A stretch of 64,000 bases of DNA. Origin: a virus. This document shows positions 20,758 through 60,829 of the stretch, piece by piece. How positions within the stretch are numbered: the stretch's first letter is position 1; each line of letters begins with the position of its first letter. The position numbers and the translations under genes were made by a program. Location: the IMG/VR virus record IMGVR_UViG_3300000970_000007, positions 25,311 to 89,310 of that record; one strand, written 5' to 3'. The notes under the pieces were generated by a model. That model had not been told where the DNA came from and did not search any database. It saw only the letters and a program-made list of their open reading frames with translations.

Positions 20758-20781
20758 ATTAAAACATAAAAATAAAAATTA

Positions 20782-21231: not shown

Positions 21232-21242
21232 AGTAAATAAAA

Positions 21243-39038: not shown

Positions 39039-39077
39039 ATCTTTATTAACTTTTTTTAAAATAACCTTATAAAACAC

Positions 39078-39085
39078 TATATTTG
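39078..39085 (+). promoter_or_regulatory. Bacteroidota-type -7 box (TATATTTG)
   Basis: 4 nt upstream of the ATG at 39090. Confidence 0.55.
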
Positions 39086-39089
39086 AAGC

Positions 39090-40265: not shown

Positions 40266-40276
40266 ATAAAATACAT

Positions 40277-40393
40277 ATGAAAGTTAAGAAAAAGAAAAGT
40301 ACAGCTAAGAAGTGTTGGAAAGGTTACACTAAGAAAGGTATAAAATTAAAAGGTGGTAAAAAAGTAAATAACTGCGTTAAAAAGAAAAAGTAA
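40277..40393 (+). CDS. 38-aa basic peptide missed by the ORF track
   Basis: Manual translation: MKVKKKKSTAKKCWKGYTKKGIKLKGGKKVNNCVKKKK; it fills the gap between two + strand genes. Confidence 0.7.
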   Translation: MKVKKKKSTAKKCWKGYTKKGIKLKGGKKVNNCVKKKK

Positions 40394-40404
40394 ATATTCT
40401 TATT

Positions 40405-42702: not shown

Positions 42703-42722
42703 TAAATATTTTCTTAATTTCT

Positions 42723-42753
42723 TTTGATATATGTAAAACTATTGCTATATTTG
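42723..42753 (+). promoter_or_regulatory. Bacteroidota sigma-A promoter TTTG-N19-TATATTTG
   Basis: TTTG at 42723-42726 and TATATTTG at 42746-42753: consensus match with canonical spacing. Confidence 0.8.
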
Positions 42754-42778
42754 AAAGTTATATAATTTTACAAAACAA

Positions 42779-45700
42779 ATGGCAAACGCTTATTCATTAA
42801 ATAATAATTACGACGCTGATATATTCTCTCCCAATATCAACCTGATAAATCAAGTATTACAGACTAAACAAACAAAGTTAGATAATAATAGATTAAGAGT
42901 AGAACAAGCATTAAGTCAAGTTGAAAATCTTGATCTTATTAGAGGAGTAGATAAAGAATACGCTGCTAATAGGTTACAAAAAGTAAACGAAATTGTAGAC
43001 AGATATGCTAATTTAGACTTATCTTCTAATAACCTAACACGTTCTTTAACAGGGGACATTGCTCAAGTAGTAGATGACAAAGTAAAGAACGCTTTAGTTT
43101 CCACTAAAATATATAGAGCAGAACAAGATAAATGGGCTAAGTTTTCAGAGAAGAATCCAGACAAGTATTTAGACAGAAATAAAGCATACTCGATGAGAGC
43201 TGCTAACGCTTGGTTACAATCAGATCAACTAGATAAATCTTATAACGGAGGTGCTGGAATTATTCAAGCAAGTGATTACCGTTCTAAATTAGCAGAAGCG
43301 TTACCTAAAGCTTTAAAAGATGTAGGTTTTACAACAGAGATAGATGATTTCGGTCAAACTGTTTATAGAGATAAAGGTAAAGGAGGACCATTAACCTTAC
43401 AAGAAGCTACTGTTAAGTACAGAGAGATAACTAAAAATAAAGTAGGAGATTTAGCAAAAACTTTATTGTCACAACAAGATTATCAACAGATGCAAATAGA
43501 TGCATGGGATAGCTTTGGTAGAGGAACTCAAGAAGATTTAGTTAGAGAACAATATGTTCAGTCAAAGAAGAAAAATAAAAATTATTATAGTAAATTAATA
43601 AAAGATACTCAAGAATATATAGAGACTAATAACTTAACAGAAGATCAAGAACGACCTTTAAAAGAAAGAATAAAAGCTTTTAAATCAGCTATAAACAATC
43701 AAGATAACGCAATAACTAACAGTTTACAAAAAAGTAACGATGCTTTATCTTTTGAGTTATATAGTCAAGATTACCTAGACAATGTTTCCAATGCTTATAA
43801 GGTTGAAAAAACAATGGTTGAAAGAAAGATAGAAGATAACAAAGCTGCTATCATGAGTTATAGACATATACTCGATCTTAACAAAGAAGAGTTTAAAGCT
43901 TCTTTAAAAAATCAAGGTTCTACAAAAGGTAATGTAGAAGTAAAAGGTAAAGAATTCGGGGGCAACCCTGTTGAATTAGAACCGAGTGATTTACCTACTT
44001 ATGAAAGTGCTGTTAATTCAGGGAAAACAGTTACTACTCCAGATGGTAATTATACTATTACTCCTTCTGGTTTGAAATTAAAGGTAAATAAAAATGCTGG
44101 TATAATATCTACTGGTAACGAAGATGATAAATTATCTAAAGAAGATGCCTTTAATAAAAAAGTTTTTGATTTGTATGAAGGAGACATATCTGATTTTTTT
44201 CAAGGAGAACCTCTTACAGGTGAAGTATTGGTTAAACTTGTAAACTATGACTATGGAGGTACTATAAAAGTAGGAGGGGAAGTTAAAGAGGTAACCCCAG
44301 CTCTAGAAGAAAAAATATTCAAATTAAAGAACCATGCTTCTCAATTAAAAGAAGAGTTCAATATGATATATAGTTCTTCAAATAAAGGTGCTGAAAAAAT
44401 ACAAGAATCAATTATAGAAAGTACAGATGTCGATATAAACAATCTCGATGACTTTAGAGTTACATTAGTACAAGGAGAAGACGGTGAGTTTAAAGCAGTG
44501 AGTAGTGCTATAAACCAGTTTGAAGCAAAAGATGATTATTCTTTACTTTTAAGTAAAGCAAAGTCTAATAGAGATTCATTAACACCCTCTGAAGAAGAGA
44601 CTCTTCTTTTAAAGTCAAAATTACATTATGCAAAAGCAATGTTCGATAGTTCAAGGTTTTCAGAAAAACAAGTAAACTCATACTTACGTTCTATTTCTGA
44701 TAAATATGATCCTGAAAGAAGTATTTTACCTACTGATGTAGCAGGTTTAAAAAGTTATGATGGAGATTTCAGATATGATAAACCTCGATTTGGAGACAAG
44801 GATTTCCTTGCTTTAGGAAGAGGAGATCTAGAAAAACCTGGAAAAAGCTTTTTTAAAGATGAAAATACCCTACTTGACAAAGACGGTAACGGTATAGGAG
44901 TCTTAGATTATCTAAAAAACCAAAAAACATCTTTAAAAGCTGATTTTGAAAATTTATTTTCAGATAATATAAAACAAAATTCATCTGATTCTTTTACTTT
45001 AAATAATGCTAGTCAAGTATTAGGAGATAATAATTTAGATTTTATATCAAGAATTCAGTTAAAATCTAAGAGTGAGTTGAATAATTTAAAAATAGTTGAT
45101 AAAGAGAGTTTGACTTTTTCAAAAATACCAGGAACAAATGAGTATGCTGTGAAAGGTAAGTTTCAATATACAACTCCTAAAAAAAATAAGGATGGGGAAA
45201 TTACTGGAGAATCAAAAATAACTTTAAATTCTACTTTTAATCCTGAAGACGCAGATAAAAAAGACGAAGGAAGAGCTTACATTAAAATATCAGAAAATGA
45301 TTTAAATAACATAACTTCATTTAAAGTTAGTGAAGGAGGTTACAATCAATATTCTATGAAGCAGAGAGGTATGAATGCAGAGTCTTTTACTCCTAGAGCA
45401 CCTAAAATTATCTCTACCTTTGGATATAATAATGGTTTGAATGTAACACAAGTAGAGGGAGTAGAACCTGCTTTTAATGATAAAGTTAAACAAGCATATG
45501 AAACCTTAAAAACAAATGAGCTTTTAAAAGGAGTGAGATTACCTGAATTACAAGAGCAAGATCTTCTAAATGTCATTAAAAAAGCACCTATTAGTGTAAC
45601 TTATACACCTAGTAAAGAAGGTTACACTCAAATTATACATTCTGAATTAGTAAATCGCAAACAAGTGTTACCTATTTCTGAATTAAGTTATGAAACTATA

Positions 45701-45805
45701 AAAGGTTTTAATAAAGATAATGAAGATTTAATGGCAATGTCTTATGCAACTGCTATGTATAACTTGTATATGGTACAATTAGAAGAAGCTAATAAAAGTA
45801 AATAA
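42779..45805 (+). CDS. putative internal virion (ejection) protein
   Basis: 1008 aa, Cys-free, within the cargo block. Confidence 0.6.
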   Translation: MANAYSLNNNYDADIFSPNINLINQVLQTKQTKLDNNRLRVEQALSQVENLDLIRGVDKEYAANRLQKVNEIVDRYANLDLSSNNLTRSLTGDIAQVVDDKVKNALVSTKIYRAEQDKWAKFSEKNPDKYLDRNKAYSMRAANAWLQSDQLDKSYNGGAGIIQASDYRSKLAEALPKALKDVGFTTEIDDFGQTVYRDKGKGGPLTLQEATVKYREITKNKVGDLAKTLLSQQDYQQMQIDAWDSFGRGTQEDLVREQYVQSKKKNKNYYSKLIKDTQEYIETNNLTEDQERPLKERIKAFKSAINNQDNAITNSLQKSNDALSFELYSQDYLDNVSNAYKVEKTMVERKIEDNKAAIMSYRHILDLNKEEFKASLKNQGSTKGNVEVKGKEFGGNPVELEPSDLPTYESAVNSGKTVTTPDGNYTITPSGLKLKVNKNAGIISTGNEDDKLSKEDAFNKKVFDLYEGDISDFFQGEPLTGEVLVKLVNYDYGGTIKVGGEVKEVTPALEEKIFKLKNHASQLKEEFNMIYSSSNKGAEKIQESIIESTDVDINNLDDFRVTLVQGEDGEFKAVSSAINQFEAKDDYSLLLSKAKSNRDSLTPSEEETLLLKSKLHYAKAMFDSSRFSEKQVNSYLRSISDKYDPERSILPTDVAGLKSYDGDFRYDKPRFGDKDFLALGRGDLEKPGKSFFKDENTLLDKDGNGIGVLDYLKNQKTSLKADFENLFSDNIKQNSSDSFTLNNASQVLGDNNLDFISRIQLKSKSELNNLKIVDKESLTFSKIPGTNEYAVKGKFQYTTPKKNKDGEITGESKITLNSTFNPEDADKKDEGRAYIKISENDLNNITSFKVSEGGYNQYSMKQRGMNAESFTPRAPKIISTFGYNNGLNVTQVEGVEPAFNDKVKQAYETLKTNELLKGVRLPELQEQDLLNVIKKAPISVTYTPSKEGYTQIIHSELVNRKQVLPISELSYETIKGFNKDNEDLMAMSYATAMYNLYMVQLEEANKSK

Positions 45806-45822
45806 TTACAAAACCAACTAAA

Positions 45823-48800
45823 ATGGATAATCCACCTATTCTATTGTCTGAAATACTTAGAGAAGTAGAGACTAACAAGGTTAATCAAAATAACATAAGC
45901 GGAAACATAGGTAGTGTTTCACCACTTAATAATCAAAGTATACCAGAATTAGATTTATTATCATTAAACAATTTTCAGTCCACTCGTTCCCTTGCGGAAG
46001 AAACTAAACCAGGAGATTTCGGTTTTGATATAAGAGATTATGGTAATGAATTAAACGACGGGTCTTTCTCATTTAAGGATCAAACTTTCAAAGCGTTTGA
46101 AAGTCCTGCTCAAGTAGATGAACGTTATGCTCAAAATCAAACAGGTTGGGAGCAATTTAAAAATGGTATAGGAAAAGCTGTTGTAAAAGCAGGTGTATAT
46201 GCAATAGATGGAACTATAGGTACAGCTTATGGAATAGCTAGTGCAATAGGAGAAGGTAGTTTTGAAGCATTGTATAATAATGATTTTGCAAAAAGTCTAG
46301 ATGATTTCAATGCAGAGTTGGATAATGATTTACCTAATTATTATACAGAGCATGAAAAAGAAATGGGGTTTTTATCTTCATTAGGTACTGCTAACTTCTG
46401 GGCAAATGATTTTGCTGGAGGACTATCTTTTCTAGCAGGAACTGTTTTAAGTGAAGGTGCGTTAGTACTAGCTACAGGAGGAGGAAGTGCTGCAACTACT
46501 TTAGGTAAATTTGCTCTAAGAAACTCTGCTAAGAAATTAGGAAAAGAAGTAGCTGAGCAGACTTTTAAGAAAGGAGGTAAGAAATTACTAAATGCTGGAA
46601 GAGTAGGGAGAGCAGTTGATTTGTCATCTTTTGCAATACGTTCAAGTGTTTACGAAGCAGGTATGGAGGCTAGACTTTCTATCAAAGAAGCTACTGATAA
46701 TTATATAAATAATTATAAGTTAGATAACAGTGGAAAAAGTCCCTCTGGAGATGAGTTATTGACTTTTATAGGAGATGCTAAATCAGCAGCCAATGGTGTT
46801 TTTGCAGCTAATATGGCAATACTTGCTCCTTCTAACTTACTAATGTTTGGTAAATTAGGCACAAAAGGTATTAAGGAGACTTCTAACAGTTTCTTGAATA
46901 GAAAATTTTTAGGTTTAGGTTACAAACCTATTAAACAAGAGGGTAAAGAGCTAGTAGGAGAAGTTATTAAAGCTAATGTAATACAGAAAACAATAGGTAG
47001 AACATCTAACTTCTTAGCTAAACCTTTAACAGAGGGTATATGGGAAGAAGGGTTACAAGGAGTAGCTACTAAAACCATGATGAATTACTTAGATACTAAA
47101 TATGACCCTAATGCAAATTTAGAAACATTAAGTGTCACAAATAGTTTCTACGAAGCCTTGTCAGAACAATATGGTACTAAAGAAGGATGGAAAGAAAATC
47201 TATTAGGAAGCATGATTGGTATGGTAGGAGGTTCATTTACTTCTTTTACAAAGAATTTAAAAGGAGGTTTAGGAAACGCTGTATCTAACACAGAGGCTTT
47301 ACCTGGTTTTGGTAAAGAAAGTTATAGTTATAAGGTGGCTCAGAATGAAAAGCAAGTTCAAGCTATGAATAAGCGAAATAAGGCTTTATTCGAAAGAGTT
47401 AACAACACTGCTTTCATGTCTAATAATATAAAAAGGCAAGAAGCTCAAGAACAAGAGGGTATAAGTTATACCGAATCTTCTACTATAGACATGAATGAAG
47501 ATTGGGCTTATATTAACTCAATGGCTTCTATGAAAAGTTCATCTGAATTAAAAGAAGATTATAGTTACGCTATAGACAATATAAAAGTTTCAGAAGAATA
47601 TGTTAAGGAAAACAATATAACAGAGGAACAATTAAATCAATTCAGAGAGAACAAAAAACAAAAATTCAATAATAGAGTTGATGCTGCTTTGCAGGCAAAA
47701 CAAGCTATAAAATACCTAAACGTTGATCTAGGGGTATCAGAAGCTAATAAATCAGTAGTAGAAGATGCATTAGCTTACAATTTGTATAGTGGTAAAGAGA
47801 GTTTAACGAACGCAGAAGAGTTAGGTACTCAATTGAATGAGTTAGTAGGTAAAGATAAAGTATTCGAAAGTGTTAAGTACTTTGAAAGTTTGACTAGTGA
47901 ACAAGCTAAAGTAGTAGATGAAATAAGAACGCTTGATAAGGATATAAAAGACTTGCAGGAAAAAAGTATGCGTTTTGCTAAGTTTCCCAATCTTAGAACT
48001 TTTAATAAAGCTAAAAATACATCAGAGTCTTTTAGAGAGAAAGAAATTGCTAAAAACATAGAGATAACAAAACTTAATGATGAGTTATTAGATAAACAAT
48101 CTAAAAAAGATAAGTTAACAGAGCAGTTAGAAAATCAAAAAACTAATCAGTCTTTCTATTCGGCAGAAACAAAAGACTTAGCTAGTAATTTCTCAGAAAC
48201 AAATGTATTAGAAGCCATAGAGCAATTAGATAATTTAGATAATTATGTAGATGCTTTAGAAGCTGATGGACGAGTACAAGATGCTGCTGTAATAAACAAT
48301 GTTTTAAGAGAGTTGAAATTTAATTTAGCTTCTTCTAGAGAAACTAATAACCAGTTTAAAGCAATGGCTTCATCTGATTATTTTAAAACAAAGTCTCTTA
48401 GAAAGTTGATTAGTAAGATAACAGGTCCTAAGTATGTAATGTCAGAAGATGTTAAAACAAAAATAAGAGATAATAATAGTATTGTAGACAAAGCTCTTAA
48501 ATCAACAGGTATAGAAAGCAACATTGATAATGCTGATTTTTTAGAAAAACTAATCCAAGATAGTCCAGAACTTTCAGATAAAAATAAGTTTCATTTAGAA
48601 CTTATGATTAGAAACATTATTCAAAGTAGCGTATCTAATGAACAGTTGAATATAGAAGTACCTAGCACTAAGGTACAAAAAGAAGAGGTTAAAAAAGTAA
48701 ATGATATACCTCGATCAGGAGCTAGATTGAAAGATGTAAAAGTTGATATAAGTAATAACCCAACATTAGATTATATTAAAAAAACAATAGATACTATTAT

Positions 48801-51261
48801 AGATAGTAGCGATCAGCTAGGAGATTTAATTTATCTTAGAAATCCTGAAAATCTAAAAACCCAAAAAGAAATAAAGGATTTACAACAAAAACAAGAAGAG
48901 TCTGATGCTAAAAAAAATTCTTTAGAAATAAACTTAGAAACCGAAAAAGGCTTAGAAGAAAAAGATGAGGAAGCTATAAAAAACCTTGAAAAAGAAATAA
49001 GTGAGTTACCTGATTATACACAAGAGATAGAAAAATTAAAATCTTCTTTACAAGAAGAAGGTTCTGATGAAATAAGACCAACGAAAGCCAACTATGAAAG
49101 GTTGGAAACCTTACTAGGTAAAAGCAATCTTACTGAAAAAGAGAAATTAGAGCTGGAAAACCTATCCAACTTTGTAGAACAGTGGATAACTCTTGATGGA
49201 ACAGTTGCTGACGGTGTATCTCTTACAGATTTGATACAACAAAAAGTAGATTTAGAGAAATTACCTGAAAACTTTGAAAATACTACTGAAAACCAAGAAC
49301 CAGATGAGTTGTTTGAGTCTAGTAATAGTGTAGCTATAAATGGTTCCCAAAGTTTTACCATTAGTGTAAATAAATTATACAAGGATACTTTAGATATAAC
49401 AGGGGTTACTTTTAAAGAGTTTGTGAGAATAACTAATCCTAATAACAAAACTGATCTATTAAGTAAAGAAGTGGAACCAGGGGATACTTTAGAATTAGAA
49501 TTAAACGACGGGATTTTACCAATAAAAATAGGAGAATTAGGAGGTATAGAGGTTGTAAAAGATAATATATCTTTATTGAATACTACTCCTATTAAAATCA
49601 TAAATACCTCTAAAAACCAATCAACACACTATAACGTAACTTTAATAGAAGAAAATGGAATTATTCGACCTTTACAATCTGATTATGCAAGTCAGATGGA
49701 TGGTAACAGAGAAGTTAATGAAGTTGCAATATATGAGACAAAAGAAAAAGAACCTTTAAGTTTAAGAATTAATTTAAATGATAGTTATAATCAAAAACTA
49801 CTAGAAAGTATACCTGACTCTGAGACTTTAACAGAAGAAGATAGAAACGCAGTAGCTACTTACAACATTGAAAAAAATAAATTAGATAACTTAGAAAGAA
49901 AAGAAGAAGAATTATCTTTAAAACCTCAATCAAAATTCAAAACGGAAGAAGAAGCGTTAGACAGCGTGGAAACAAATGATAAGGTTTTAGAATTAGAACA
50001 AGAAATAGAGGTCTTATCTGAAAAAATAGAATTACTAGAGTCTTCTATTAGTAAGGAAAACTTAGAAAAGTCTGAATTAGAGTTGAGAGAATTAGCTTTA
50101 GATAAATTAAATTCAGAGTTAGAGGTTAAAGATAAAGAGTTGACATCTTTGATAGTTTCTTTAGAAGCACAAGTTGTTAAAGAATTTAAAGAGACATCTG
50201 ATATTAAAGAAAAGTTAAAGGCTATAAGGAGTGAAAGAACAGAACAAGGTCGTAAAGTTTCTTCCTTGAAAAGAGTACTCCCAAAAAACACTGTTAATAA
50301 TAAATTATCTTCATCAGAATTAGCAGACTTAAAAGAGAATTTAAAGCAAGGTTTAGTTATATCTATTTATACAAATAGAGGAGAAGGTGATTATGTAGGT
50401 ACTTTAAAAAGCCAAAGAAACCCTGAAAATTTATCAGTAGGTATAGAGAACTTCAATGCATTTAGAGATAGCATTATTGAAAAATATTTCGATGAAATAA
50501 TAAGTTCAAAAGGACAAGAGCTTAGACTTAACGAAGAAGTAAGTAATCAAAGTGTTTATTTAGGACATCCTAATTATAAATATGTAAGAGAAGGTGGTAA
50601 GATAACTACTGAGTATATTGAACTAACTCCTAATCAAGCTAAAGACGTTGTTGACGTAGGTTATGTAGAAAATGGTAAGTTACAAACTAGAAATGAAGTT
50701 GAAAATATAGATGTAACTTTTACGAAACCTATTAAAACAAAAGGTAAAACAGGAGTAGTAGTTATAAATAGATTTGGTAAAAACATAGCAATACCTGTTA
50801 ATGCAAAAAACTCTAACGAAAATTATGGTAAAAGATTAGAAGATATTTACAGAAAGGGGACTAAATCTCCAGAAATGGCTTTAGAATTGAACAAAGTTTT
50901 ATTAGAAGCAGGTGTTAACCCTAAAAAAGAAGGTTTTATATTCATAAGTGCTAAGAAAGATGGTAATAATATAAATGATAAAGAAATATTAAATAAAGTT
51001 GCTGAATTAAGTAATAAAGACTACTTTTACAACGTAGAAGACTGGGCTAAAAAAGATTCTGATTTAGAACTAATAGCTAATAGCCAAGTTGTTACTAATA
51101 TAGATATGAACAGACCTTTTATTTCACCAAAACTAATGTTAGATATACCTACTATGACTGTACCTTCACAAGTAAACTCGTCTAAAGTAAGTAAACAAAG
51201 TAAATTAAGCCAAGGAGGTAGTTCAAAACTTTCTTCTATATTAAGTCAAAAAGGTTGTTAA
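45823..51261 (+). CDS. large ejection / DNA-delivery protein
   Basis: 1812 aa; Gly/Ala hydrophobic segments, EGIWEEGLQ motif, long coiled coils; the only Cys is the last residue. Confidence 0.65.
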   Translation: MDNPPILLSEILREVETNKVNQNNISGNIGSVSPLNNQSIPELDLLSLNNFQSTRSLAEETKPGDFGFDIRDYGNELNDGSFSFKDQTFKAFESPAQVDERYAQNQTGWEQFKNGIGKAVVKAGVYAIDGTIGTAYGIASAIGEGSFEALYNNDFAKSLDDFNAELDNDLPNYYTEHEKEMGFLSSLGTANFWANDFAGGLSFLAGTVLSEGALVLATGGGSAATTLGKFALRNSAKKLGKEVAEQTFKKGGKKLLNAGRVGRAVDLSSFAIRSSVYEAGMEARLSIKEATDNYINNYKLDNSGKSPSGDELLTFIGDAKSAANGVFAANMAILAPSNLLMFGKLGTKGIKETSNSFLNRKFLGLGYKPIKQEGKELVGEVIKANVIQKTIGRTSNFLAKPLTEGIWEEGLQGVATKTMMNYLDTKYDPNANLETLSVTNSFYEALSEQYGTKEGWKENLLGSMIGMVGGSFTSFTKNLKGGLGNAVSNTEALPGFGKESYSYKVAQNEKQVQAMNKRNKALFERVNNTAFMSNNIKRQEAQEQEGISYTESSTIDMNEDWAYINSMASMKSSSELKEDYSYAIDNIKVSEEYVKENNITEEQLNQFRENKKQKFNNRVDAALQAKQAIKYLNVDLGVSEANKSVVEDALAYNLYSGKESLTNAEELGTQLNELVGKDKVFESVKYFESLTSEQAKVVDEIRTLDKDIKDLQEKSMRFAKFPNLRTFNKAKNTSESFREKEIAKNIEITKLNDELLDKQSKKDKLTEQLENQKTNQSFYSAETKDLASNFSETNVLEAIEQLDNLDNYVDALEADGRVQDAAVINNVLRELKFNLASSRETNNQFKAMASSDYFKTKSLRKLISKITGPKYVMSEDVKTKIRDNNSIVDKALKSTGIESNIDNADFLEKLIQDSPELSDKNKFHLELMIRNIIQSSVSNEQLNIEVPSTKVQKEEVKKVNDIPRSGARLKDVKVDISNNPTLDYIKKTIDTIIDSSDQLGDLIYLRNPENLKTQKEIKDLQQKQEESDAKKNSLEINLETEKGLEEKDEEAIKNLEKEISELPDYTQEIEKLKSSLQEEGSDEIRPTKANYERLETLLGKSNLTEKEKLELENLSNFVEQWITLDGTVADGVSLTDLIQQKVDLEKLPENFENTTENQEPDELFESSNSVAINGSQSFTISVNKLYKDTLDITGVTFKEFVRITNPNNKTDLLSKEVEPGDTLELELNDGILPIKIGELGGIEVVKDNISLLNTTPIKIINTSKNQSTHYNVTLIEENGIIRPLQSDYASQMDGNREVNEVAIYETKEKEPLSLRINLNDSYNQKLLESIPDSETLTEEDRNAVATYNIEKNKLDNLERKEEELSLKPQSKFKTEEEALDSVETNDKVLELEQEIEVLSEKIELLESSISKENLEKSELELRELALDKLNSELEVKDKELTSLIVSLEAQVVKEFKETSDIKEKLKAIRSERTEQGRKVSSLKRVLPKNTVNNKLSSSELADLKENLKQGLVISIYTNRGEGDYVGTLKSQRNPENLSVGIENFNAFRDSIIEKYFDEIISSKGQELRLNEEVSNQSVYLGHPNYKYVREGGKITTEYIELTPNQAKDVVDVGYVENGKLQTRNEVENIDVTFTKPIKTKGKTGVVVINRFGKNIAIPVNAKNSNENYGKRLEDIYRKGTKSPEMALELNKVLLEAGVNPKKEGFIFISAKKDGNNINDKEILNKVAELSNKDYFYNVEDWAKKDSDLELIANSQVVTNIDMNRPFISPKLMLDIPTMTVPSQVNSSKVSKQSKLSQGGSSKLSSILSQKGC

Positions 51262-51267
51262 AGAATT

Positions 51268-54200
51268 ATGAGTTGTAGTTTAAATTTTAAAGGGGTAGAA
51301 ATAGCTAGTGTAGATAACTCTAAACTTTTTAAAGAGTTAGAAACTTACTTTGAAGGAGATATTAACAAAGCTACTCAAACATGGTTGAATAGTTTCCAAG
51401 AAGATTCTGGTTTTATAAATGAAAAAACAAATGTACCTTCTAATGAATTAATGAAAGACTTCAAAGGAAAAGAGATAATATCTTCCGCACAGAAGTTAGT
51501 TAAAGGTGTAAGTGGTAAATTCAAGTCAGATGGAAGTAGGTTAAATGTTCATGAGGGAACCAATGGTATTTTCGCCACTCATGATGTTTCTTTAGCTGAA
51601 CAATATCAAGGGGAGTTACCTTTAAAAGAGTTTACTATTCCTCCAGGCTCTACTATTGAATATTTAACAGCAATAGGAAAAGGTCTTACAATAGAAGAAA
51701 CAAGAAAATTAGAAGTAGAACTAATCAATAATTCTACGTCTGATATAGTTAAACTAGATCTTATAGATAAGTCAGGTAGAGAAACACAATTTATAATAAA
51801 AGATGAGGCTATAATAAAGTCTTCTAAAGATTTTGAAAAATATACACTTGTTGAACCTACTTTAGAGGAGTCTTTAATACTTTCTGAGATATATAATACT
51901 AATGAAGCAGTTTTAGATATAAACACTAAGGTAAGTGTTATTAGCAGTATGCGCCATCTTGGTATAGAAGACTCAAAAGATTTATTAGATAAATTAAACA
52001 AAACGTTTAGAAGTAAAGGTTATTTTGAACTAGATGTAAATAAAATTAAAAAAAGTGGGTTATATTCTGTACAAGAAGTTAACAGTATAGTCTCAAATCC
52101 TAATGTATCAAGTAAAATTGCAAAAACTATAAGAGAACTTGATAATTCAGAATCTTTTAAGGTAAACATAAATAATTCAAACAATGTGTTGAAACTTAAA
52201 AATCCTAATAAAAAAGGAGTTTTGGGAAATAATGAAATAATACCTATTAGTAAAATAGAAAAAGATTTAAAGTTAATAGGAGCTAATACTGATACTAAAG
52301 AGGATTTTATAAGTGAATTAAGAAGTTTAGAGTATAGTGGGTTAATAATGGAGATGGAGAAATCTTCTGAACTGTCTGAAGCCATATATAATGATTTTGG
52401 TAATTATACTAAAATACCAGCTTATGAGTTTGTAAGAGGGAGATTACAACCTGTTGAACAAGGGATAAGTAAAACAACTTTAGCATTATCAATGTTAGAA
52501 GGAGTTTCTAGCAAAGAAATAATAGAAGATATTGATTTTGTAAAAAGTATAAATCAAGAGGCTTGGATAGAAGTTCAAGAAGATCTTTCAACAATACTAA
52601 AAGAAATAGAAAAAGAAGCAACTGATTTTAACATTGATATTGTAGGACTATCTGAAAAAACACAAGATAGAGAAGGTGTTATAAAAATGCTAGAAGATTT
52701 AGCAGATGTAACACTTTTGTTAGATAAAAAAGCATTAGACGATTCTACTTTGTCAAAGTATGTTGAAAGTTACAATGAGCTTTTTAAAGAAACAGACCAA
52801 AGTTTTGAATTACAAAAATTAGACAAGTATCCAGAGAATACTGTTTATGTAAGAACAACGGCTACAGATACTAAGATGTTTGATGAATTCGGACTGGTTA
52901 ATCTAGGAGATGGTTATTATCACGCAGTTGATATGGAGATACCAGTGGAAGAGTTAGAATCCTTTTTAGACGCTAATATACAGGAAGAAAGACTGACTCA
53001 TGTAAAAGATCAAAACAAAAGATTACAACGTTATATAAAAATAAAAGAAAAAGAATCCTTTTCTAAAAAAGGAAGTACAGACTATTATGATGAAACTGGG
53101 TTATCTTTTAGGTTAGGGGACCTCAAAGTAACTCCTGAAAAATTAGGAAAGTTCAGAGGAGGCAGAGGAACAGGACATTACGGAACAGGTTTTTATTTCA
53201 CAGGATACGAGCAAACTTTAAATGAACCCTCTGATAACTATCAAAGAGAACTCAATACTGTTGATTTTAGAGCTTATAATTTACTTAGAGTTAAAAATAA
53301 TAGTATAGGTTTAAAACTACACGATGTTTTAAAAAGTTTCCAAGGTCTTAGTATTAATTCTTTAGATAATGTAACTGAAGATGAAAAAATGTTGGCTACA
53401 TTGAAAACAAACGGAGAAATAGATAATTACAAAGTAAAAGTTTTAATAGAAAATTTAGTACTCTCTATTAAATCAGAAATAGAGGTTGATTATAATACAG
53501 GAAACCTTAAAGGTTATTATAAAGAGGATGATTATAGTCAAGATGACATAGATTTTGAAATTAGCAGAGTTAATTTTAATGAAGACAATATATTATACCA
53601 ACTAGAAAAATTAGATAAAGGTTATACCGCCTTTGACAAAAGATATTCTTTTAAAGAAATCTTTCAAAACAATAAAACTTTTCCTAAAGAATATTTAGAA
53701 AAGGTTTTAGATTCTTACTATAAAAACTTACCTTCTAAAAAAGAAGTGTTTAAAGAAAGTCTTGTTGAAAAATTAAAACCTTTAGCTAAAATAGTATCTT
53801 TAGTAGATATTAATACTAATTTTAAAGATAATTTACAGCTTTTAAAAGAAGGAATTGTAAGTAAATTAAGAAGAGACTCTTATCAAGAGTCTCATATGAG
53901 AAAAACTACATTAGGTACTGAATTAATTAAACTTCTAGGTTATAACGGAATAGACGTAAGAGGTGTAGGTGAACAAAATGGAATGACAGGATTGGATAAT
54001 TTTTCGTATGGTTCGGTAATATACGATTTGGAAAATACCATACAAGGCAAAAAACCAGACATTCAAACATTTGGTGACGAAGTAATTTTAAATAAAACAT
54101 TAGAAGAAGTAAAAACAAAAGAATTACCTTTTGAAACAATAAATGCAGTTAAGTATAACTTATATTCTGAGATGTATGGTTATTCTAACTATAAATCTAC

Positions 54201-54837
54201 TTCTAACTTAGTTTTACCCACTAAGGCAAAGGTTAGTGTAGAGTATTTAAAAGAGGGTTTTAAAGACGATTTATACAACTATATACTAAAAGAAAAGGTA
54301 AAAGATTCAGAGTTATATAATTCTGTACTTTCCAATATTTCAATAGCAGCGGATGGGATAAATATAAGTGAAGATAATTTAGACTTATTAGATTTAGTTG
54401 AAGATAATGAAATATTGGAAAACTTAAAAATATACGGAGCCATTCGTAAAAACTCTGGTTTTGACTTTCTCAACATAGAAGGGCAGACAAATCCTTACAG
54501 TCATCTTTTCGAAGAGTTAAACACTAACCCTAAAAAAATAGAAGACCAGTATATACAAGAAGGAGATTTTATTATCACAAATGAGTTTGAAAATTTCATA
54601 CAAGTAGGTAATGATTTATATCAAAACCTAGGAGATAGTTTATTTTTTAAATTAGGAGAGAAAAACCCTATATTTAACACATTACCTCTGACAAAAAATA
54701 TAGAAGTACCAACAGAAGTATTAAATAAAGTTTTAGAATTTAACAATACTAAACCGACTTCTGATATTACTATTGAGAAATTAACATCAGATTTTGTACT
54801 TAAAGAAACTGAAAAAGAATTAAACTGTAATGGATAA
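51268..54837 (+). CDS. large polyvalent-type virion protein with two ADP-ribosyltransferase-like domains
   Basis: 1189 aa; GIFATHDVSLAEQY...TQFIIKDEAIIKS and GTGHYGTGFYF...LGYNGIDVR...YGSVIYDL resemble ART-PolyVal signatures. Confidence 0.55.
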   Translation: MSCSLNFKGVEIASVDNSKLFKELETYFEGDINKATQTWLNSFQEDSGFINEKTNVPSNELMKDFKGKEIISSAQKLVKGVSGKFKSDGSRLNVHEGTNGIFATHDVSLAEQYQGELPLKEFTIPPGSTIEYLTAIGKGLTIEETRKLEVELINNSTSDIVKLDLIDKSGRETQFIIKDEAIIKSSKDFEKYTLVEPTLEESLILSEIYNTNEAVLDINTKVSVISSMRHLGIEDSKDLLDKLNKTFRSKGYFELDVNKIKKSGLYSVQEVNSIVSNPNVSSKIAKTIRELDNSESFKVNINNSNNVLKLKNPNKKGVLGNNEIIPISKIEKDLKLIGANTDTKEDFISELRSLEYSGLIMEMEKSSELSEAIYNDFGNYTKIPAYEFVRGRLQPVEQGISKTTLALSMLEGVSSKEIIEDIDFVKSINQEAWIEVQEDLSTILKEIEKEATDFNIDIVGLSEKTQDREGVIKMLEDLADVTLLLDKKALDDSTLSKYVESYNELFKETDQSFELQKLDKYPENTVYVRTTATDTKMFDEFGLVNLGDGYYHAVDMEIPVEELESFLDANIQEERLTHVKDQNKRLQRYIKIKEKESFSKKGSTDYYDETGLSFRLGDLKVTPEKLGKFRGGRGTGHYGTGFYFTGYEQTLNEPSDNYQRELNTVDFRAYNLLRVKNNSIGLKLHDVLKSFQGLSINSLDNVTEDEKMLATLKTNGEIDNYKVKVLIENLVLSIKSEIEVDYNTGNLKGYYKEDDYSQDDIDFEISRVNFNEDNILYQLEKLDKGYTAFDKRYSFKEIFQNNKTFPKEYLEKVLDSYYKNLPSKKEVFKESLVEKLKPLAKIVSLVDINTNFKDNLQLLKEGIVSKLRRDSYQESHMRKTTLGTELIKLLGYNGIDVRGVGEQNGMTGLDNFSYGSVIYDLENTIQGKKPDIQTFGDEVILNKTLEEVKTKELPFETINAVKYNLYSEMYGYSNYKSTSNLVLPTKAKVSVEYLKEGFKDDLYNYILKEKVKDSELYNSVLSNISIAADGINISEDNLDLLDLVEDNEILENLKIYGAIRKNSGFDFLNIEGQTNPYSHLFEELNTNPKKIEDQYIQEGDFIITNEFENFIQVGNDLYQNLGDSLFFKLGEKNPIFNTLPLTKNIEVPTEVLNKVLEFNNTKPTSDITIEKLTSDFVLKETEKELNCNG

Positions 54838-55186
54838 AACACAAGTATATCACGATGGTACTCCTCAACAATTACCTTTTTCAACTTCTTATTTATTTTC
54901 AACAATTAAAAATTATAAAGTTGAAATATTAAAAAAAGCTTGGAAGAATAAATTAAATACGTATATTGTACTAAATTTAGGAGTAGAGGTAGGTGACATA
55001 ATAAAATTCAAAGGTTATAAGACCAAATTCTATGTAAAAAAATGGATAAGTTATGATGCCACAGGAGGATCTGTTTATCAAATAGCAAGGTTAGACAGGT
55101 GTAGAGTATCACAATTTGATTTAGATAATTTAAAACCAAAGGTAACTGGATTAATAAAAGGTTACGTTAACAAACCAAAAAGATAA
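54830..55186 (+). CDS. small basic hypothetical protein
   Basis: 118 aa ORF overlapping the upstream stop, between two giant genes. Confidence 0.55.
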   Translation: MDKTQVYHDGTPQQLPFSTSYLFSTIKNYKVEILKKAWKNKLNTYIVLNLGVEVGDIIKFKGYKTKFYVKKWISYDATGGSVYQIARLDRCRVSQFDLDNLKPKVTGLIKGYVNKPKR

Positions 55187-55189
55187 GTT

Positions 55190-58100
55190 TTGAGCTGTAC
55201 AATTAAAAGAAACGAGTTAGGGAAAGCAGTAGAGATAAACCCTCAATCAGAAAAAGAATCTCAGTTTATAAAAGATGTTTCTAATATCCCTTCTATAACA
55301 GAAGTAGAGGAAGTTGCTAACATTTATATAAATAAGGTAGCATCTGATATTAATCTGGAAGACTATGAAGGTATTTCATATAAATTAGGAGACAAGGAAT
55401 TTACTGATTATTCAGAAATGTTATTTGAAAATCAAGGTAAACCCTACCAAGTTGTTTTAAAAACAAACAGTCAAGAAATAGTTATTATAGAAGATGTTTT
55501 AGAAACAGATTCGAACTCTAGTAAAGGTAGGGTTAATCAAGCTATACTAAAAGGTTTAATAAAAGGTAAGTCGTTAATAAAAAATGGAAACATTCATTTT
55601 GAACCCTCTGGTACAACAGTATTGGAGAAAGTAAATAATACTAAAGAAGCGAAAAGAGTTTTTGGTAAGCACACTGTTTCAATAAGAGAAGGTAATACTT
55701 TAGTATTTAAAGAAGAAAAAGGGTTAGAGACTCCAGAAAGTAAGTTAGTTGCAGAAGCTTTTACTACAAGTGAACCTTTAGAAAAAGTAGATTTAAATAA
55801 TGTAGAAAGTTCTTTTACAAATTTTTTAAGAAACTTAGGTATATCTATAACAACTCTAGACAGTTATAAAAAAAGCTACGGCATAAAGAATTCAGGTTCT
55901 AAGGTTGTAACCGCTTTAGCAGATGTAAGTAGAGGTATTATAGCATTGTCTAAAGGAGATAAAGTTGATTTTCATGAAGAATTAGCACACGTTGCTGTAT
56001 CTCATTATAAAGACAGAGAAAGTCTTGAAGAAGCTTTAGTAGATGTTGCTGAAACATCTGAATATGTAAAATACAGTCAAGAATACAGAGATGCATACAG
56101 CGATTTAAAAGGTATCGAACTAGAGACTAAAGTAAGAACGGAAGTACTAGGTAAGATATTATCTGAGAAGTTAAAAAATACATCCAAACATCCTTTTGCT
56201 AGAATAGAAAGAGCTTTAAATAATATTTTAAACTTATTTAGAAAAGATGTCATAGGTAATGTAAAATCATACCATTCTGAAACAATAGAAAAGCTAGTAG
56301 ATAAAATGGAAAAAGGAATTAGATCGAATAATATGGGTCTTTTTTCTAAAACTTCTTTTGATGAGGGTACTTTTTTTAAGATAAATACTAATAAGTCATC
56401 TCTAAACCTTGATATTGACCGTTTGATAAAATCATTTAATGGTGCTTTTATGAAAATGAGTAAAGATATATCTAAAGTTAGTTTTCAGCAAGCTAAAGAT
56501 ATAGACGAAGAATTTGAAGTATTAAGAGGTATGGTTTCCTTAGAGACTTCTCTAGCTGCTTTAGAGCATATAAGTAAAGAAGTGACTAAAAAAAGAAATT
56601 CTATCAATAATAAACTTGAAGAAAGTACTCTTCTTAGTTATGTAAGGTTTGCTAGAGCTTTAGAAATTACTACTTCAAATGTAAGACTTAACATAGAAAT
56701 ACCTCTATCTGCCCCTAATGCTAATCAATTGAAACAATCTTTAGAAACCTTAGAATCTAGATTAGCAAATGAGTTCGATAAATTAAAAAAATTAGAAGAA
56801 GAGTTACGTAAAGAATCTTCTGTAACAGGGAGAAGTACAACTTTGGATTATGCACAAAAAGCAGGGCGTGACGTAAAAAAAGTAGAAGCGTTGTTTGACA
56901 AAGTTACCAATGACGTTTCTGTATTTTTCAAATGGTTGATACCACCTTCATATGCAAAGAATTATTTACTCTCTTTAATGCCTAAGCTTTTTTCAGATAT
57001 GTTTAATGAGGCTGACGTAAAGGCTCAGAAAAGTCTTAATTCTTACATACAAAAGATAGAAGATAATGGTTGGCAAAAATATCAAGATGAGTTAATAAAA
57101 AAAGATAAGGACGGTGTAGCAACTCCATATATGCTAGCTCCTACTAATAAGTTTGAGCAAACCCAAAAAAGGAGAGATTTTAACATCCTTACTCTATCTA
57201 AATTATCAGGCAAGACTATAAAAGAAGTTAGTGATATATACGACAGTAAAAACCCTTTAGAAGGTTTAGATCTTACTCCAGACCAAGTAAAAGAGTTTGA
57301 GAAAGCTAAGTATAAAAATGATAGAGAAACTAGAGAAAACCCTAAAGACAGTTCTTACTATGAAGAAAGAGAGCAAGAGTTAGATAACTTGAATATTTCT
57401 GACATCTCTAGAAACCTACTTTCAGATTATAGTGCCCAAAGAGCTTCAATAACAAGACACGCTTTTGAGAACGGTAAAATGGATAAGTCTAAACTATCTG
57501 AAACTGATAAAGCTAGATTGATAGAATTAGCTATTGATAAAAAGAAAAAGAAAAGTGCTTACACAATAGCAGAATACTCTGGAAGATCTATTTTAAAAGA
57601 AGGTTTAAAAGTTTCTAAATTATCAGATATAACGACAAAAGAATTAGACACTTTTCCTCAAGAAATAAAAGAGTTTTTAGAAAAAGAAAGAGTAGAAAAC
57701 CCTAACAGAGAAATTGTATTTAAGGATCCTAATGCTTCAGTAGTTTTAGAAGATTCTATAATAGCTGCTGAATTAAATCTATTAGATTATTCTTACCAAG
57801 CTAAAAATGCTAAAAACCCTAGTGCAAATAAAAACTTAGGGTCAGATTTTCTTCAAGCATTAGAAGAAGCAGAGAACAGGGGTGAAGGTTTTAAATGGTT
57901 AATGGATAATGGTGGTTTTGAGTTATCTGAAAACGCAATAGCAGATTTAAAAGAGAATGTATCTTATTCAGATAATGTAGAAAAATACATTGAATCGTTG
58001 CAAGGAGATAGGAAAAAAGATGTAAAGGAAAACTTAGAAATTCTAGAAACTCTTGTATCTCAAAAAAAAGCTATTTTAAGACCTTTTAAAAACGCCAATC

Positions 58101-60829
58101 CTTTAGAAGAGTTTCACTATGCTCAACTAAGCGATAATGTAAAGGAAAACCTTATTGAAATAGAAGAAGACATAGCAGCTTTAAAAAGAAGTATAAGACT
58201 ACCTAATGAGTTTAATAACTCTGACTTTAAAGATATGAATGTCACTCTTAATACTGAGGTATTAGAAGATTCTGTTAGTAAGGGGTATAATGATATAACA
58301 GAGTACATAACTGATAACACTACAAGAGATAATAAAGCAGACATATTAAACTTTAAAAAAGAATATGAAAGATATGAAAGAGACTTTGAAGCAGGTAATC
58401 CTACTAGAATGTCTAAGAAATATGTAGAGTTTATAGACGAGATGTCTTCAACTGATTCTAAAACAGGTCGACTTTTAACACCCGAACAGTTTAAAAATAG
58501 GGTTTTTAAAGAATATGCTATTAGGAAAGCTCCTTCTTTTATGAAAGAATACAGGCAAGAAGGTTTTGAGAATTTTAAAAGAGACTTACTAACAAATGAT
58601 ATAGATTTAATTCAATTGGCAACAAACAAACAGTCTTTATTGAATAAATATCCTTTGTTGGAAAACTATGAAGTTAAGTCAGATTATAATTGGAAAGAGG
58701 AAAACGTTATAGACGATGTGATTAATCCTAGGTACAAACCTGATGCTACTTTTGATACATATAATAAAGTTGACATGGATTTTTTCAATAAGTTTTTTAA
58801 TAACCCTACTGACGCTGTAAAAAAATGGCATGATTTAAAAACAGATGATATATCTCAATTAACCCCTGATAAAAATAAAGAAGCTTTTGGTTTGTTAGTG
58901 CATTTAACAGAATTTAATAAGGAAAACTTAGAAAAGTTTGATTCTGCTGAGAAGACTAGTAAGTATATGATTCCTCAGTTTTCAAAAACTAGATTAGAAA
59001 ACACAGAAGCAGTACTTAAAAGTAAAGACAAGTTAGCAAACTTAAAAGATAGCTTTACAGATATTTTTAAAAACAATACCGATGAATTATTAGAAGGACA
59101 AACTGTAAATGAATTGACCGATATACCAGATGCTTTAGTTATACCTAAATATGGCGTAACGCTTCTCCCTAATAGGAAAACAATGAGTACTGACCTAATC
59201 GGTAATATCGCCAGATTTAGAGCAAACGCTGAAATATACGATGCAAGAGTTAAGTACAAAAATAGAGCAGAAGGTATTGTACAAGCAATAGGTCAACAGA
59301 GTTTTAAAGATAGACTTGGAGGATCTAGAGCTGTTAAAAAAGGAGTAGAGTCTAATACTTACGCTATGTCTGTAAAAAAGATGAATGAAATGATCTATGG
59401 AGTAAAAGAGACTTATTCTGTAAAACCTGTTATTTTTGGCAAAGAAAGAGATATTACTTCAATGGTCAATGGTATTACAAGTATAATACAAAGAATAAAC
59501 TTAGCCTTCTCACCAATAACTGATTTTACATCTTTAGCATCAGGTTATATAAATATAAAGGTGCAAGCGTTAGTAGAAGAACATTTTAGTAAAAAGTCTT
59601 CTTTAAGAGGAGAGAAATTACTTTATGGAATGTTGGGTTCATATACTAAAGAAGTAGGTAAAGTAAATAAAAACTCTAAACTGAATAAGTTGGGAGAACA
59701 TTTTGGCTTGTTCAATATATCTGAAAGATTTGAAAATACTAAATTCAGTAGAGCAACTAAAACTTTACATCCTTCTAAAAGTGCCTTCTTAGGATCAGAA
59801 ATGGCTAATCTACCTGTAGGAGGGAATGTAATGGCTACGGTATTAGTGGATATTAAATTAGTAGATGGTAAGTTTAGAAACTTCAATCAATATAAAACTT
59901 ACATGAAGTTGAATAGTAAGAACTCTATTTCTAGAAAAGAATTAACTAAAAAGTGGGACAATATTAAAGGTTCTTCTATTATTGATTTTTTAGATACTGA
60001 TTCTGAAATCATACAACCTAACACTAAATTTAAGCAAGAATTTCCTAACAACACTGAACAAGAATTTATGGATATGACTACTAAAGCATCCTCTATGATT
60101 TCAAAGATTAATAGTGAGGCAGACGGTATGATGTCACAAACAGATAAGTCAGAAGCAAAAAGAAATTTCTTATTCAATATGGCAATGACCCATAAGAGCT
60201 GGTTCTATTTAACTTTAGCAAACAGATTTAAACCAAGAGGAATGGACTGGATGCTAGGAAAAGAAACACAAGGGTCTTATAGTAATTTATTAGATATGAC
60301 TAGTTATTTAATAAAGAACTCTAAGAAACTAACTTCTATGGAAGGTTTTAAAGAACTGAGACAAGAGTTAGGGAAAGATGAGATAAATGCTACTAGTATA
60401 AGAAGAATAAAAGTAGATGCTTTAATTCTAGCAGCTTTACTAGCCATCGGAGAGATGATACAAGCAGGTGATGAACCAGATGATAGTTGGTTAGAAAATT
60501 TTGGACAATTGATTTACTTAAGATCTACAGCAGAATTCAATTCAACAAATGCTTATGGTATCCAACATAACTTGATGGAAATAGTTGAAACACCTTTTGT
60601 AGGAACTAGTAATATAGATGATATTAATCCAGTTGGAATAGTTAGAGATTTATTTAAAGATTCTGAAGAAGGTAAAACTCCTTTATATGATAGAATTAAG
60701 AGGAACTTACCTTTATTAAAGAGAAGTTACCAAATGATAAACATAGATAAAACAACTAAAGATTATATTAAATACAATAAAGACTTGTTATTTAATTTAG
60801 TTCCAGATAAAGACGAAAGTAAAAAATAA
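55190..60829 (+). CDS. large polyvalent-type virion protein with zincin-like metallopeptidase motif (TTG start)
   Basis: 1879 aa; FHEELAH plus downstream EVLGK. The MSC N-terminus matches that of the 51268 protein, which supports the TTG start. Confidence 0.6.
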   Translation: MSCTIKRNELGKAVEINPQSEKESQFIKDVSNIPSITEVEEVANIYINKVASDINLEDYEGISYKLGDKEFTDYSEMLFENQGKPYQVVLKTNSQEIVIIEDVLETDSNSSKGRVNQAILKGLIKGKSLIKNGNIHFEPSGTTVLEKVNNTKEAKRVFGKHTVSIREGNTLVFKEEKGLETPESKLVAEAFTTSEPLEKVDLNNVESSFTNFLRNLGISITTLDSYKKSYGIKNSGSKVVTALADVSRGIIALSKGDKVDFHEELAHVAVSHYKDRESLEEALVDVAETSEYVKYSQEYRDAYSDLKGIELETKVRTEVLGKILSEKLKNTSKHPFARIERALNNILNLFRKDVIGNVKSYHSETIEKLVDKMEKGIRSNNMGLFSKTSFDEGTFFKINTNKSSLNLDIDRLIKSFNGAFMKMSKDISKVSFQQAKDIDEEFEVLRGMVSLETSLAALEHISKEVTKKRNSINNKLEESTLLSYVRFARALEITTSNVRLNIEIPLSAPNANQLKQSLETLESRLANEFDKLKKLEEELRKESSVTGRSTTLDYAQKAGRDVKKVEALFDKVTNDVSVFFKWLIPPSYAKNYLLSLMPKLFSDMFNEADVKAQKSLNSYIQKIEDNGWQKYQDELIKKDKDGVATPYMLAPTNKFEQTQKRRDFNILTLSKLSGKTIKEVSDIYDSKNPLEGLDLTPDQVKEFEKAKYKNDRETRENPKDSSYYEEREQELDNLNISDISRNLLSDYSAQRASITRHAFENGKMDKSKLSETDKARLIELAIDKKKKKSAYTIAEYSGRSILKEGLKVSKLSDITTKELDTFPQEIKEFLEKERVENPNREIVFKDPNASVVLEDSIIAAELNLLDYSYQAKNAKNPSANKNLGSDFLQALEEAENRGEGFKWLMDNGGFELSENAIADLKENVSYSDNVEKYIESLQGDRKKDVKENLEILETLVSQKKAILRPFKNANPLEEFHYAQLSDNVKENLIEIEEDIAALKRSIRLPNEFNNSDFKDMNVTLNTEVLEDSVSKGYNDITEYITDNTTRDNKADILNFKKEYERYERDFEAGNPTRMSKKYVEFIDEMSSTDSKTGRLLTPEQFKNRVFKEYAIRKAPSFMKEYRQEGFENFKRDLLTNDIDLIQLATNKQSLLNKYPLLENYEVKSDYNWKEENVIDDVINPRYKPDATFDTYNKVDMDFFNKFFNNPTDAVKKWHDLKTDDISQLTPDKNKEAFGLLVHLTEFNKENLEKFDSAEKTSKYMIPQFSKTRLENTEAVLKSKDKLANLKDSFTDIFKNNTDELLEGQTVNELTDIPDALVIPKYGVTLLPNRKTMSTDLIGNIARFRANAEIYDARVKYKNRAEGIVQAIGQQSFKDRLGGSRAVKKGVESNTYAMSVKKMNEMIYGVKETYSVKPVIFGKERDITSMVNGITSIIQRINLAFSPITDFTSLASGYINIKVQALVEEHFSKKSSLRGEKLLYGMLGSYTKEVGKVNKNSKLNKLGEHFGLFNISERFENTKFSRATKTLHPSKSAFLGSEMANLPVGGNVMATVLVDIKLVDGKFRNFNQYKTYMKLNSKNSISRKELTKKWDNIKGSSIIDFLDTDSEIIQPNTKFKQEFPNNTEQEFMDMTTKASSMISKINSEADGMMSQTDKSEAKRNFLFNMAMTHKSWFYLTLANRFKPRGMDWMLGKETQGSYSNLLDMTSYLIKNSKKLTSMEGFKELRQELGKDEINATSIRRIKVDALILAALLAIGEMIQAGDEPDDSWLENFGQLIYLRSTAEFNSTNAYGIQHNLMEIVETPFVGTSNIDDINPVGIVRDLFKDSEEGKTPLYDRIKRNLPLLKRSYQMINIDKTTKDYIKYNKDLLFNLVPDKDESKK

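Follow-up and report, generated by a model that had tools for sequence, protein, structure and literature searches.

Three giant genes on the plus strand of a 64,000-nucleotide stretch of phage DNA (the window; positions 25,311 to 89,310 of IMG/VR virus record IMGVR_UViG_3300000970_000007) encode proteins of 1812, 1189 and 1879 residues, here termed proteins 1, 2 and 3. Together they comprise 4880 residues and only four cysteines, each located at a terminus that faces the next or preceding protein in gene order. The same arrangement recurs in every related genome that could be scored, and natural gene fusions remove exactly the pair of cysteines that would otherwise face each other across the fused junction. 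The most likely explanation, which the comparisons described here render probable, is that the three are cargo proteins of the virion joined end to end by disulfide bonds.

The window is part of a 121-kb phage record, has a G+C content of approximately 30%, and carries nearly all of its genes on the plus strand. An earlier note on this DNA, based on a scan by eye, had assigned the four cysteines to the C-end of protein 1, both ends of protein 2 and the N-end of protein 3, and a computational count confirms each of these positions (Table 1), as well as the absence of cysteine from the two outer termini. In the other 142 open reading frames (ORFs) of the record, cysteine accounts for 1.16% of residues, so that approximately 57 would be expected in proteins 1-3; the Poisson probability of finding four or fewer is approximately 1e-19. 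The chance that four randomly placed residues would all fall within the four facing three-residue zones is approximately 4e-11, while among the other ORFs a cysteine occurs within residues 2-5 in six of 142 and within the last four residues in four of 142. Protein 3 begins with a TTG codon, which is credible because an in-frame TAA stop lies two codons upstream and the first 52 residues match the conserved N-terminal module described below. The inventory of four cysteines thus stood, yet the cysteine-poor stretch is larger than the note had stated: the block from 38139 to 60829 encodes 7461 residues with five cysteines, and includes a 118-residue ORF between proteins 2 and 3 that had been overlooked.

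The source of the window is a crAss-like phage related to Cellulophaga phage phi17:2. PHROGs and tblastn linked protein 1 to crAss-like genes annotated as a putative RNA-polymerase subunit and to a structural protein of the Cellulophaga phages phi17:2 and phi4:1, and protein 3 to a further virion protein of phi17:2. A phmmer comparison with phi17:2 revealed full synteny, in which proteins 1 and 3 correspond to gp039 (E = 4e-69) and gp036 (E = 5.6e-57), respectively, and upstream proteins of 1968, 765 and 1008 residues correspond to gp043, gp041 and gp040. By jackhmmer, crAss001 gp47 matches protein 1 (E = 1.5e-129) and gp49 matches protein 3 (E = 8e-248), which is homologous to phi14:2 gp65 as well; in iterated searches, gp49 and phi14:2 gp65 matched the same region in crAss001 and in Lbo-JY46. 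Proteins 1-3 belong to the RNA polymerase (RNAP)-associated virion cargo block of crAss-like phages, which is formed by gp47/gp50/gp49 in crAss001, gp67/gp66/gp65 in phi14:2 and gp039/gp038/gp036 in phi17:2. Judging from these orthologues, namely the tandem mass spectrometry (MS/MS) virion annotations in the phi17:2 and phi14:2 records and the mass spectrometry of crAss001, proteins 1-3 are probably packaged in the virion. The crAss001 proteins gp47, gp49 and gp50 were detected by mass spectrometry as cargo stored in the capsid, and must partially unfold in order to exit via the tail (PMC10172136).

Other searches returned less. No match in a phage collection was obtained with the 15-kb region (megablast) or with protein 2 (tblastn), and a scan of viral contigs with protein 2 found no relative. 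Pfam contains no family for any of the eight proteins of the block, including proteins 1-3, whose relatives carry matches to PF18760 ART-PolyVal or LPD23. Polyvalent virion proteins are large, multidomain phage proteins with variable effector domains that are delivered together with the DNA, and the survey describing them is silent on cysteines (Iyer et al. 2017, PMC5512222).

Conservation of the terminal cysteines in orthologues, on which the proposal of the earlier note depended, persists down to approximately 22-25% identity, and the many internal cysteines that it had named as the contrary outcome are almost never seen in homologues. Protein 1 homologues of 1600-2700 residues, retrieved from 5.8 billion proteins at 25-36% identity, possess a cysteine 0-3 residues from the C-end in 53 of 53 cases, and in 50 of the 53 there is no other. 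For protein 3, six of seven homologues have their sole cysteine at residue 3-5. An exhaustive HMMER search with protein 2 yielded 148 cluster representatives, of which 110 carry cysteine no more than eight residues from both ends (101 of these without any other) and most of the remainder are fragments or single-domain matches. Across genomes the cysteine codons comprise 46 TGT and 8 TGC, and the flanking residues are variable; the use of both codons in varying surroundings shows that selection acts on the amino acid.

The block was read in 21 genomes, 19 of which could be scored without ambiguity, and in all 19 a single chain rule applies: cysteine is confined to the C-end in the first protein and to the N-end in the last, and is present at both ends of the inner proteins. 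In the cultured phage phi14:2, cysteine is the last residue of gp67, occupies positions 3 and 2179 of the 2180 residues of gp66, which is the crystallised RNAP, and lies at position 3 of gp65. The phi17:2 proteins gp039, gp038 and gp036 likewise obey the rule. In crAss001, the cysteines are residue 2339 of 2341 in gp47, residues 5 and 2404 of 2412 in gp50, which has one internal cysteine in addition, and residue 5 in gp49. Since gp50-gp49 are located on the strand opposite gp47 in crAss001, and the second and third chain genes of csAssE-Sib are separated by 8 kb, the rule is independent of gene adjacency and of the sequence at the junctions.

These comparisons make it scarcely credible that the cysteines have no function at the protein level and reflect chance, nucleotide motifs at gene junctions, as for translational coupling, or annotation artefacts. 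All four codons in the window are indeed TGT and adjoin start or stop codons. However, chance is disfavoured by the figure of approximately 4e-11 for the window alone, and the comparative data contradict the remainder: the rule holds for the non-adjacent genes of crAss001 and csAssE-Sib, for overlaps or gaps of 3 to 130 nt, with either cysteine codon, and at less than 25% identity.

The manner in which the termini pair can be read from natural gene fusions. Where proteins 2 and 3 are fused, as in the cyanophage Lbo-JY46, crAss002, cr3_1 and p-crAssphage (gp44, beside gp45), the cysteines of the C-end of protein 2 and the N-end of protein 3 (2C/3N) are absent, and those of the C-end of protein 1 and the N-end of protein 2 (1C/2N) are retained. 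Where proteins 1 and 2 are fused, as in Flavobacterium phage Fpv1 gp33, cr7_1, cr60_1, cr1_1 and cr118_1, 1C/2N is absent and 2C/3N is retained; Fpv1 gp33 has one cysteine in 4401 residues, at the penultimate position (-1). For Fpv1 gp33 and p-crAssphage gp45, the designations "1+2 fusion" and "protein 1" are based on position, size and the place of the RNAP region, and a profile of the protein 1 family did not detect their N-terminal halves. Furthermore, one metagenomic relative possesses a four-link chain in which an extra protein of 141 residues carries Cys3 and Cys140, for a total of six cysteines. Because fusions remove exactly the junction pair and a four-link chain exists, each C-end appears to pair with the next N-end, which is the pairing that the earlier note had proposed. 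The facing cysteines are conserved on both partners and are lost together, as an intermolecular link requires, and this pattern in the sequences supports such a link. No fusion of all three proteins was found among the blocks read; a chain would predict that such a fusion has no terminal cysteine. In crAss002 (NC_055828), M-S-C begins at residue 33 of gp33 (9270-22007), the annotated start of which is probably 32 codons too far upstream.

In three-protein systems, the cysteine counts would be equally well satisfied by a different pairing, in which protein 2 is cyclised via its own two cysteines and protein 1 is linked to protein 3. Yet 2+3 fusions keep 1C and 2N, and 1+2 fusions keep 2C and 3N, even though the supposed partners are gone, and the four-link chain also fits a linear order; we therefore regard this pairing as very improbable. 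The retention of the other pair in fused lineages argues in the same manner against a single metal site with four cysteines. Lineages with fused genes (Lbo-JY46, Fpv1, cr1_1 and others) keep two cysteines and one phage has six, which excludes a Zn(Cys)4 or Fe-S site common to all four termini.

The two kinds of terminus differ in character. The first approximately 50 residues of the protein 2 and protein 3 families are homologous (hhalign probability 95.5%, E = 1.6e-8), and the 141-residue extra link carries the same N-terminal module (95.9%). Cys3 is near-invariant in the alignment of the protein 2 family, and an AlphaFold2 model of the module predicts a β-hairpin at residues 4-14, followed by two helices at residues 19-42. 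The last five residues of protein 2, including Cys1187, are unstructured in the AlphaFold2 model. The N-end, with the motif M-G-L-K-C-[RKQ]-[IVL], has isoleucine, valine or leucine at position +2 after the cysteine in 112 of 117 sequences and carries a net charge of +1.4 on average; the C-end of protein 2, with the motif [DE]-K-I-D-E-C-G, averages -1.3. No C-terminal domain common to the protein 1 and protein 2 families was found, and the short tail motif is all that they have in common. A search for an internal copy of the module at the junctions of fused proteins was negative, which is uninformative, as the module may be lost or diverged there.

Two known uses of such cysteines were considered and rejected. 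A split intein with protein trans-splicing would require two Hint-fold halves, one of approximately 100 residues with cysteine as its first residue at the end of the N-precursor, the other terminating in asparagine ahead of the cysteine at the start of the C-precursor; this is ruled out, as only 0-3 residues follow the C-terminal cysteine (up to 8 in crAss001 gp50), 2-4 residues precede the N-terminal cysteine, and no Pfam domain was detected. A bacterial lipoprotein is similarly ruled out, given that the cysteine is found at residue 3-5, directly after the methionine and 1-3 further residues, with no hydrophobic leader or lipobox.

The placement of the N-terminal cysteine within a conserved, folded module raises the question as to whether the terminal cysteines bind each other at all, or whether they have separate roles, such as anchoring the protein to the portal, the capsid or some further partner, or providing the N-terminal module with a nucleophile or a site for modification, and co-occur because every separately made cargo protein needs such ends. 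The lone terminal cysteines of p-crAssphage gp47 and of a 674-residue protein of Lbo-JY46 are in keeping with this explanation. It would nonetheless leave unexplained why the first protein has no N-terminal cysteine and the last no C-terminal cysteine in 19 of 19 genomes, and why the junction cysteines disappear jointly in fusions while the other pair stays. Moreover, neither a signal peptide or lipobox before the N-terminal cysteine nor a Pfam domain was found. On balance, separate roles seem unlikely.

For the end-to-end disulfide chain, we infer the bond itself, its timing, and its roles in packaging, ejection and release. The N-terminal module of each downstream protein would dock the C-terminal tail of the preceding one, and on exit of the particle from the reducing cytoplasm the two thiols would be oxidised to a disulfide. 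This would turn the cargo into a linear, unbranched concatemer joined head to tail, here of 1812+1189+1879 residues, and the post-translational counterpart of the single giant polyprotein of other crAss-like lineages. Such a thread would fix a 1:1:1 stoichiometry and could, once unfolded, move through the portal and the tail channel as a single chain would, after which reduction of its disulfides in the host cytoplasm would cut it into its parts. The lack of other cysteines would avoid wrong cross-links and branched loops that cannot be threaded.

Several points weigh against this proposal. All of its support comes from comparing sequences, and no bond has been observed. For many of these phages the habitat is the anoxic gut and the cytoplasm in which they assemble is reducing, which leaves the time and manner of thiol oxidation unexplained. 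Several internal cysteines are tolerated in some gut lineages (crAss002 gp33, cr7_1), and interrupted ORFs or ambiguous bases prevented a clean scoring of IAS virus and cr108_1. Terminal cysteines with no identified partner occur in upstream cargo, at residue 856 of 857 in p-crAssphage (BK010471) gp47 and at residue 5 of the 674-residue Lbo-JY46 protein (XAI97385); the terminal-cysteine device may extend past the three giant proteins in some lineages. To these may be added the co-folding of the C-terminal 250 residues of protein 1 with the N-terminal 250 residues of protein 2, which gave a score of 0.01 and a low predicted local distance difference test (pLDDT) value, although this is evidence neither way.

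The difficulty of oxidation would not arise if the same termini were paired by a bridging metal ion or another non-disulfide link, such as a thiolate-metal-thiolate arrangement completed by nearby carboxylates, which needs no oxidant and would work in anoxic habitats. Many of the hosts are strict anaerobes, aspartate or glutamate is common at positions -1 and -2 of the C-terminal cysteine of protein 2 (in most of 117 sequences), and the pairwise loss of cysteines in fusions fits any link between two partners. Conversely, no histidine or second cysteine is conserved near either terminus, and the cysteine lies at a distance from the end that differs by several residues between sequences, which is easier to reconcile with a flexible disulfide than with a defined metal site. 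We accordingly assign a metal-bridged chain only a small share of the probability, and retain the disulfide as the preferred form of the link.

A broader possibility, which we advance tentatively and with more doubt than confidence, is that the 50-residue N-terminal module and the C-terminal cysteine tail constitute a portable coupler, able to hook any carrier protein into a disulfide "train" that would be loaded into the particle and injected as a single thread, to be uncoupled in the host by its reducing cytoplasm. Were this so, it would account for the ability of crAss-like phages to divide, merge, rearrange and extend their cargo, as with the 141-residue link and the highly variable middle protein, while delivery is preserved, and it would provide a redox switch through which the injected polymerase becomes active only within the cell.

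Other podoviruses likewise have large proteins inside the virion that leave it in unfolded form, before the DNA or together with it, such as the ejection proteins gp14/15/16 of T7 and gp7/16/20 of P22. The large expelled virion proteins of N4, gp50 (3500 residues), gp51 and gp52, contain no cysteine in 4294 residues, like the bulk of the proteins described here, but also lack terminal cysteines. The cysteine-free state of the N4 proteins thus marks the baseline for ejected proteins, to which the terminal cysteines are an addition. The 2026 paper on N4 describes no covalent link between ejection proteins (PMC13434306). As a separate observation, the N4 tail tube protein gp54 begins with M-S-C.

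Within the crAss-like phages, the block of the window lies in the same place as the known RNAP-associated cargo block, downstream of cysteine-free cargo proteins, and displays the same terminal-cysteine pattern; it differs in its middle protein, which is short (1189 residues) and has neither a DFDxD motif nor detectable homology to the virion RNAP (vRNAP). The giant fused RNAP polyproteins (p-crAssphage gp44, crAss002 gp33, Fpv1 gp33 and the 4500-5400-residue proteins of Suoliviridae) contain the same modules in the same N-to-C order within one chain. There, however, the modules are joined by a peptide bond and no cysteine marks the junction, whereas here the genes are separate and the junctions are marked by cysteine.

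The proposed mechanism has a parallel in AB toxins such as diphtheria toxin and the clostridial neurotoxins, in which an interchain disulfide keeps the translocated cargo attached to its partner as long as it is outside the cell, and reduction of the bond in the cytosol sets the cargo free. In the toxins a single bond lies within one nicked precursor, whereas the proposed chain would join separately translated proteins end to end, and there is no homology between the two systems. The crAss001 virion does contain structural intermolecular disulfides, in the gp57 dimer, the tail hub and the ring proteins (PMC10172136); these are lateral bonds in ordered tail or capsid proteins, as opposed to terminal links between cargo proteins.

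The earlier note knew of no description of such a system, and no published one was found in the open-access literature: terminal cysteines are unmentioned in the crAss001 structural atlas, the phi14:2 RNAP preprint, the survey of polyvalent proteins, the 2023 Crassvirales review and the 2026 N4 ejection paper, and further full-text searches retrieved nothing relevant. As phi14:2 gp66 was crystallised alone, as a recombinant protein, in dithiothreitol (DTT)/tris(2-carboxyethyl)phosphine (TCEP), a link would be hidden in that structure. The cargo block itself is known, and the linking rule appears to be undescribed.

The crAss-like phages are the most abundant phages of the human gut, and how more than 600 kDa of crassvirus cargo, including the virion RNA polymerase, is loaded and ejected is an open question to which these results are addressed. 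Neither the 2023 structural atlas nor the 2026 N4 paper resolves the cargo or ejection proteins (PMC10172136, PMC13434306). A conserved end-to-end link, if real, would offer a concrete mechanism for stoichiometry, exit order and release, and would explain both the free switching between one giant gene and several and the extreme lack of cysteine in ejected proteins. Phage particles might, moreover, be loaded with foreign proteins by means of the coupler.

Protein 2 occupies the position that the catalytic vRNAP (gp50/gp66) holds in other phages, yet it could not be shown to be a virion RNAP. Proteins 1-3 contain no DFDxD-type (D-x-D-x-D) motif, a sequence search of the PDB with protein 2 gave no match, and the best fold match to its AlphaFold2 model (mean pLDDT 73.7) was 6VR4, which is weak (E = 0.07, Z = 5.9, root-mean-square deviation 10 Å). 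A DFDKD sequence in phi17:2 gp039 was ruled out as a catalytic site, since the motif is not conserved. When phi14:2 gp66 was used as the query, no match was obtained in the 121-kb record, which is approximately 80% complete, such that the RNAP may lie elsewhere. Among relatives, the middle protein ranges from 517 to more than 3000 residues.

Two inserted domains of protein 2 have no Pfam family. The AlphaFold2 model of the first (residues ~76-186) weakly matches the catalytic ADP-ribosyltransferase domain of diphtheria toxin (Z = 4.4-4.9, 12-15% identity); many other giant phage proteins contain this domain too, and PF18760 ART-PolyVal is present in some relatives. The domain may act against the host as an injected effector, although the structural match is too weak to call. 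The second (residues ~611-921) is also found as stand-alone proteins of 280-360 residues in metagenomes, at 35-42% identity.

Table 1. Positions in the window of the chain proteins, their cysteine codons and neighbouring features
Feature	Position	Strand	Basis or remark
Protein 1 (1812 aa), first link	45823..51261	+	ORF; sole Cys is the last residue
Protein 1, C-terminal Cys codon TGT	51256..51258	+	Codon scan
Protein 2 (1189 aa), inner link	51268..54837	+	ORF; Cys3 and Cys1187
Protein 2, N-terminal Cys module (~50 aa: Cys3, β-hairpin, two helices)	51268..51417	+	hhalign, AlphaFold2
Protein 2, N-terminal Cys codon TGT (residue 3)	51274..51276	+	Codon scan
Protein 2, first inserted domain	51493..51825		AlphaFold2 model
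Protein 2, second inserted domain	53098..54030		Stand-alone proteins in metagenomes
Protein 2, C-terminal Cys codon TGT (residue 1187 of 1189, third from last)	54826..54828	+	Unstructured tail
Protein 3 (1879 aa, TTG start), last link	55190..60829	+	ORF; sole Cys is residue 3
Protein 3, N-terminal Cys module, homologous to that of protein 2	55190..55345	+	Profile comparison
Protein 3, N-terminal Cys codon TGT (residue 3)	55196..55198	+	Codon scan
118-aa ORF between proteins 2 and 3	54830..55186	+	One Cys (residue 91)
Four upstream proteins (299, 391, 765 and 1008 aa)	38139..45805	+	Zero Cys
1968-aa homologue of phi17:2 gp043	32230..38136	+	34 Cys

The 118-residue ORF that separates proteins 2 and 3 begins within the coding sequence of protein 2, its ATG lying inside the codons for the final CNG and stop. 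The ORF and its single cysteine are kept in two relatives (L002, at 55% identity, and L003), neither Pfam nor PHROG assigns it to a family, and the Atlas model of it is of poor quality. In phi17:2, an unrelated ORF of 119 residues (gp037), which is not annotated as structural, stands in the same place, and the 118-residue ORF is probably outside the chain. The four cysteine-free proteins upstream, two of which (765 and 1008 residues) are homologous to the virion proteins gp041 and gp040 of phi17:2, probably also serve as cargo or ejection proteins. In sharp contrast to this cargo, the 1968-residue protein directly upstream of the cysteine-free block is rich in cysteine; it matches phi17:2 gp043 with an E-value of 0 and is presumably an external tail or muzzle-type protein.

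Two further observations concern related genomes. In csAssE-Sib (31086-37488), IAS virus (gp055/gp056) and cr108_1 (gp054/gp053), the annotation splits chain genes into two ORFs that overlap or are separated by a gap; a frameshift, ambiguous bases or an intervening element may be the cause, and the chain rule does not lend itself to clean scoring in these records. Finally, cargo protein 1 of crAss001-like phages has a close internal pair of cysteines, which are its only ones, at residues 390/398 in crAss001 gp45, 369/378 in phi14:2 g069 and 256/264 in L019 CARG1.

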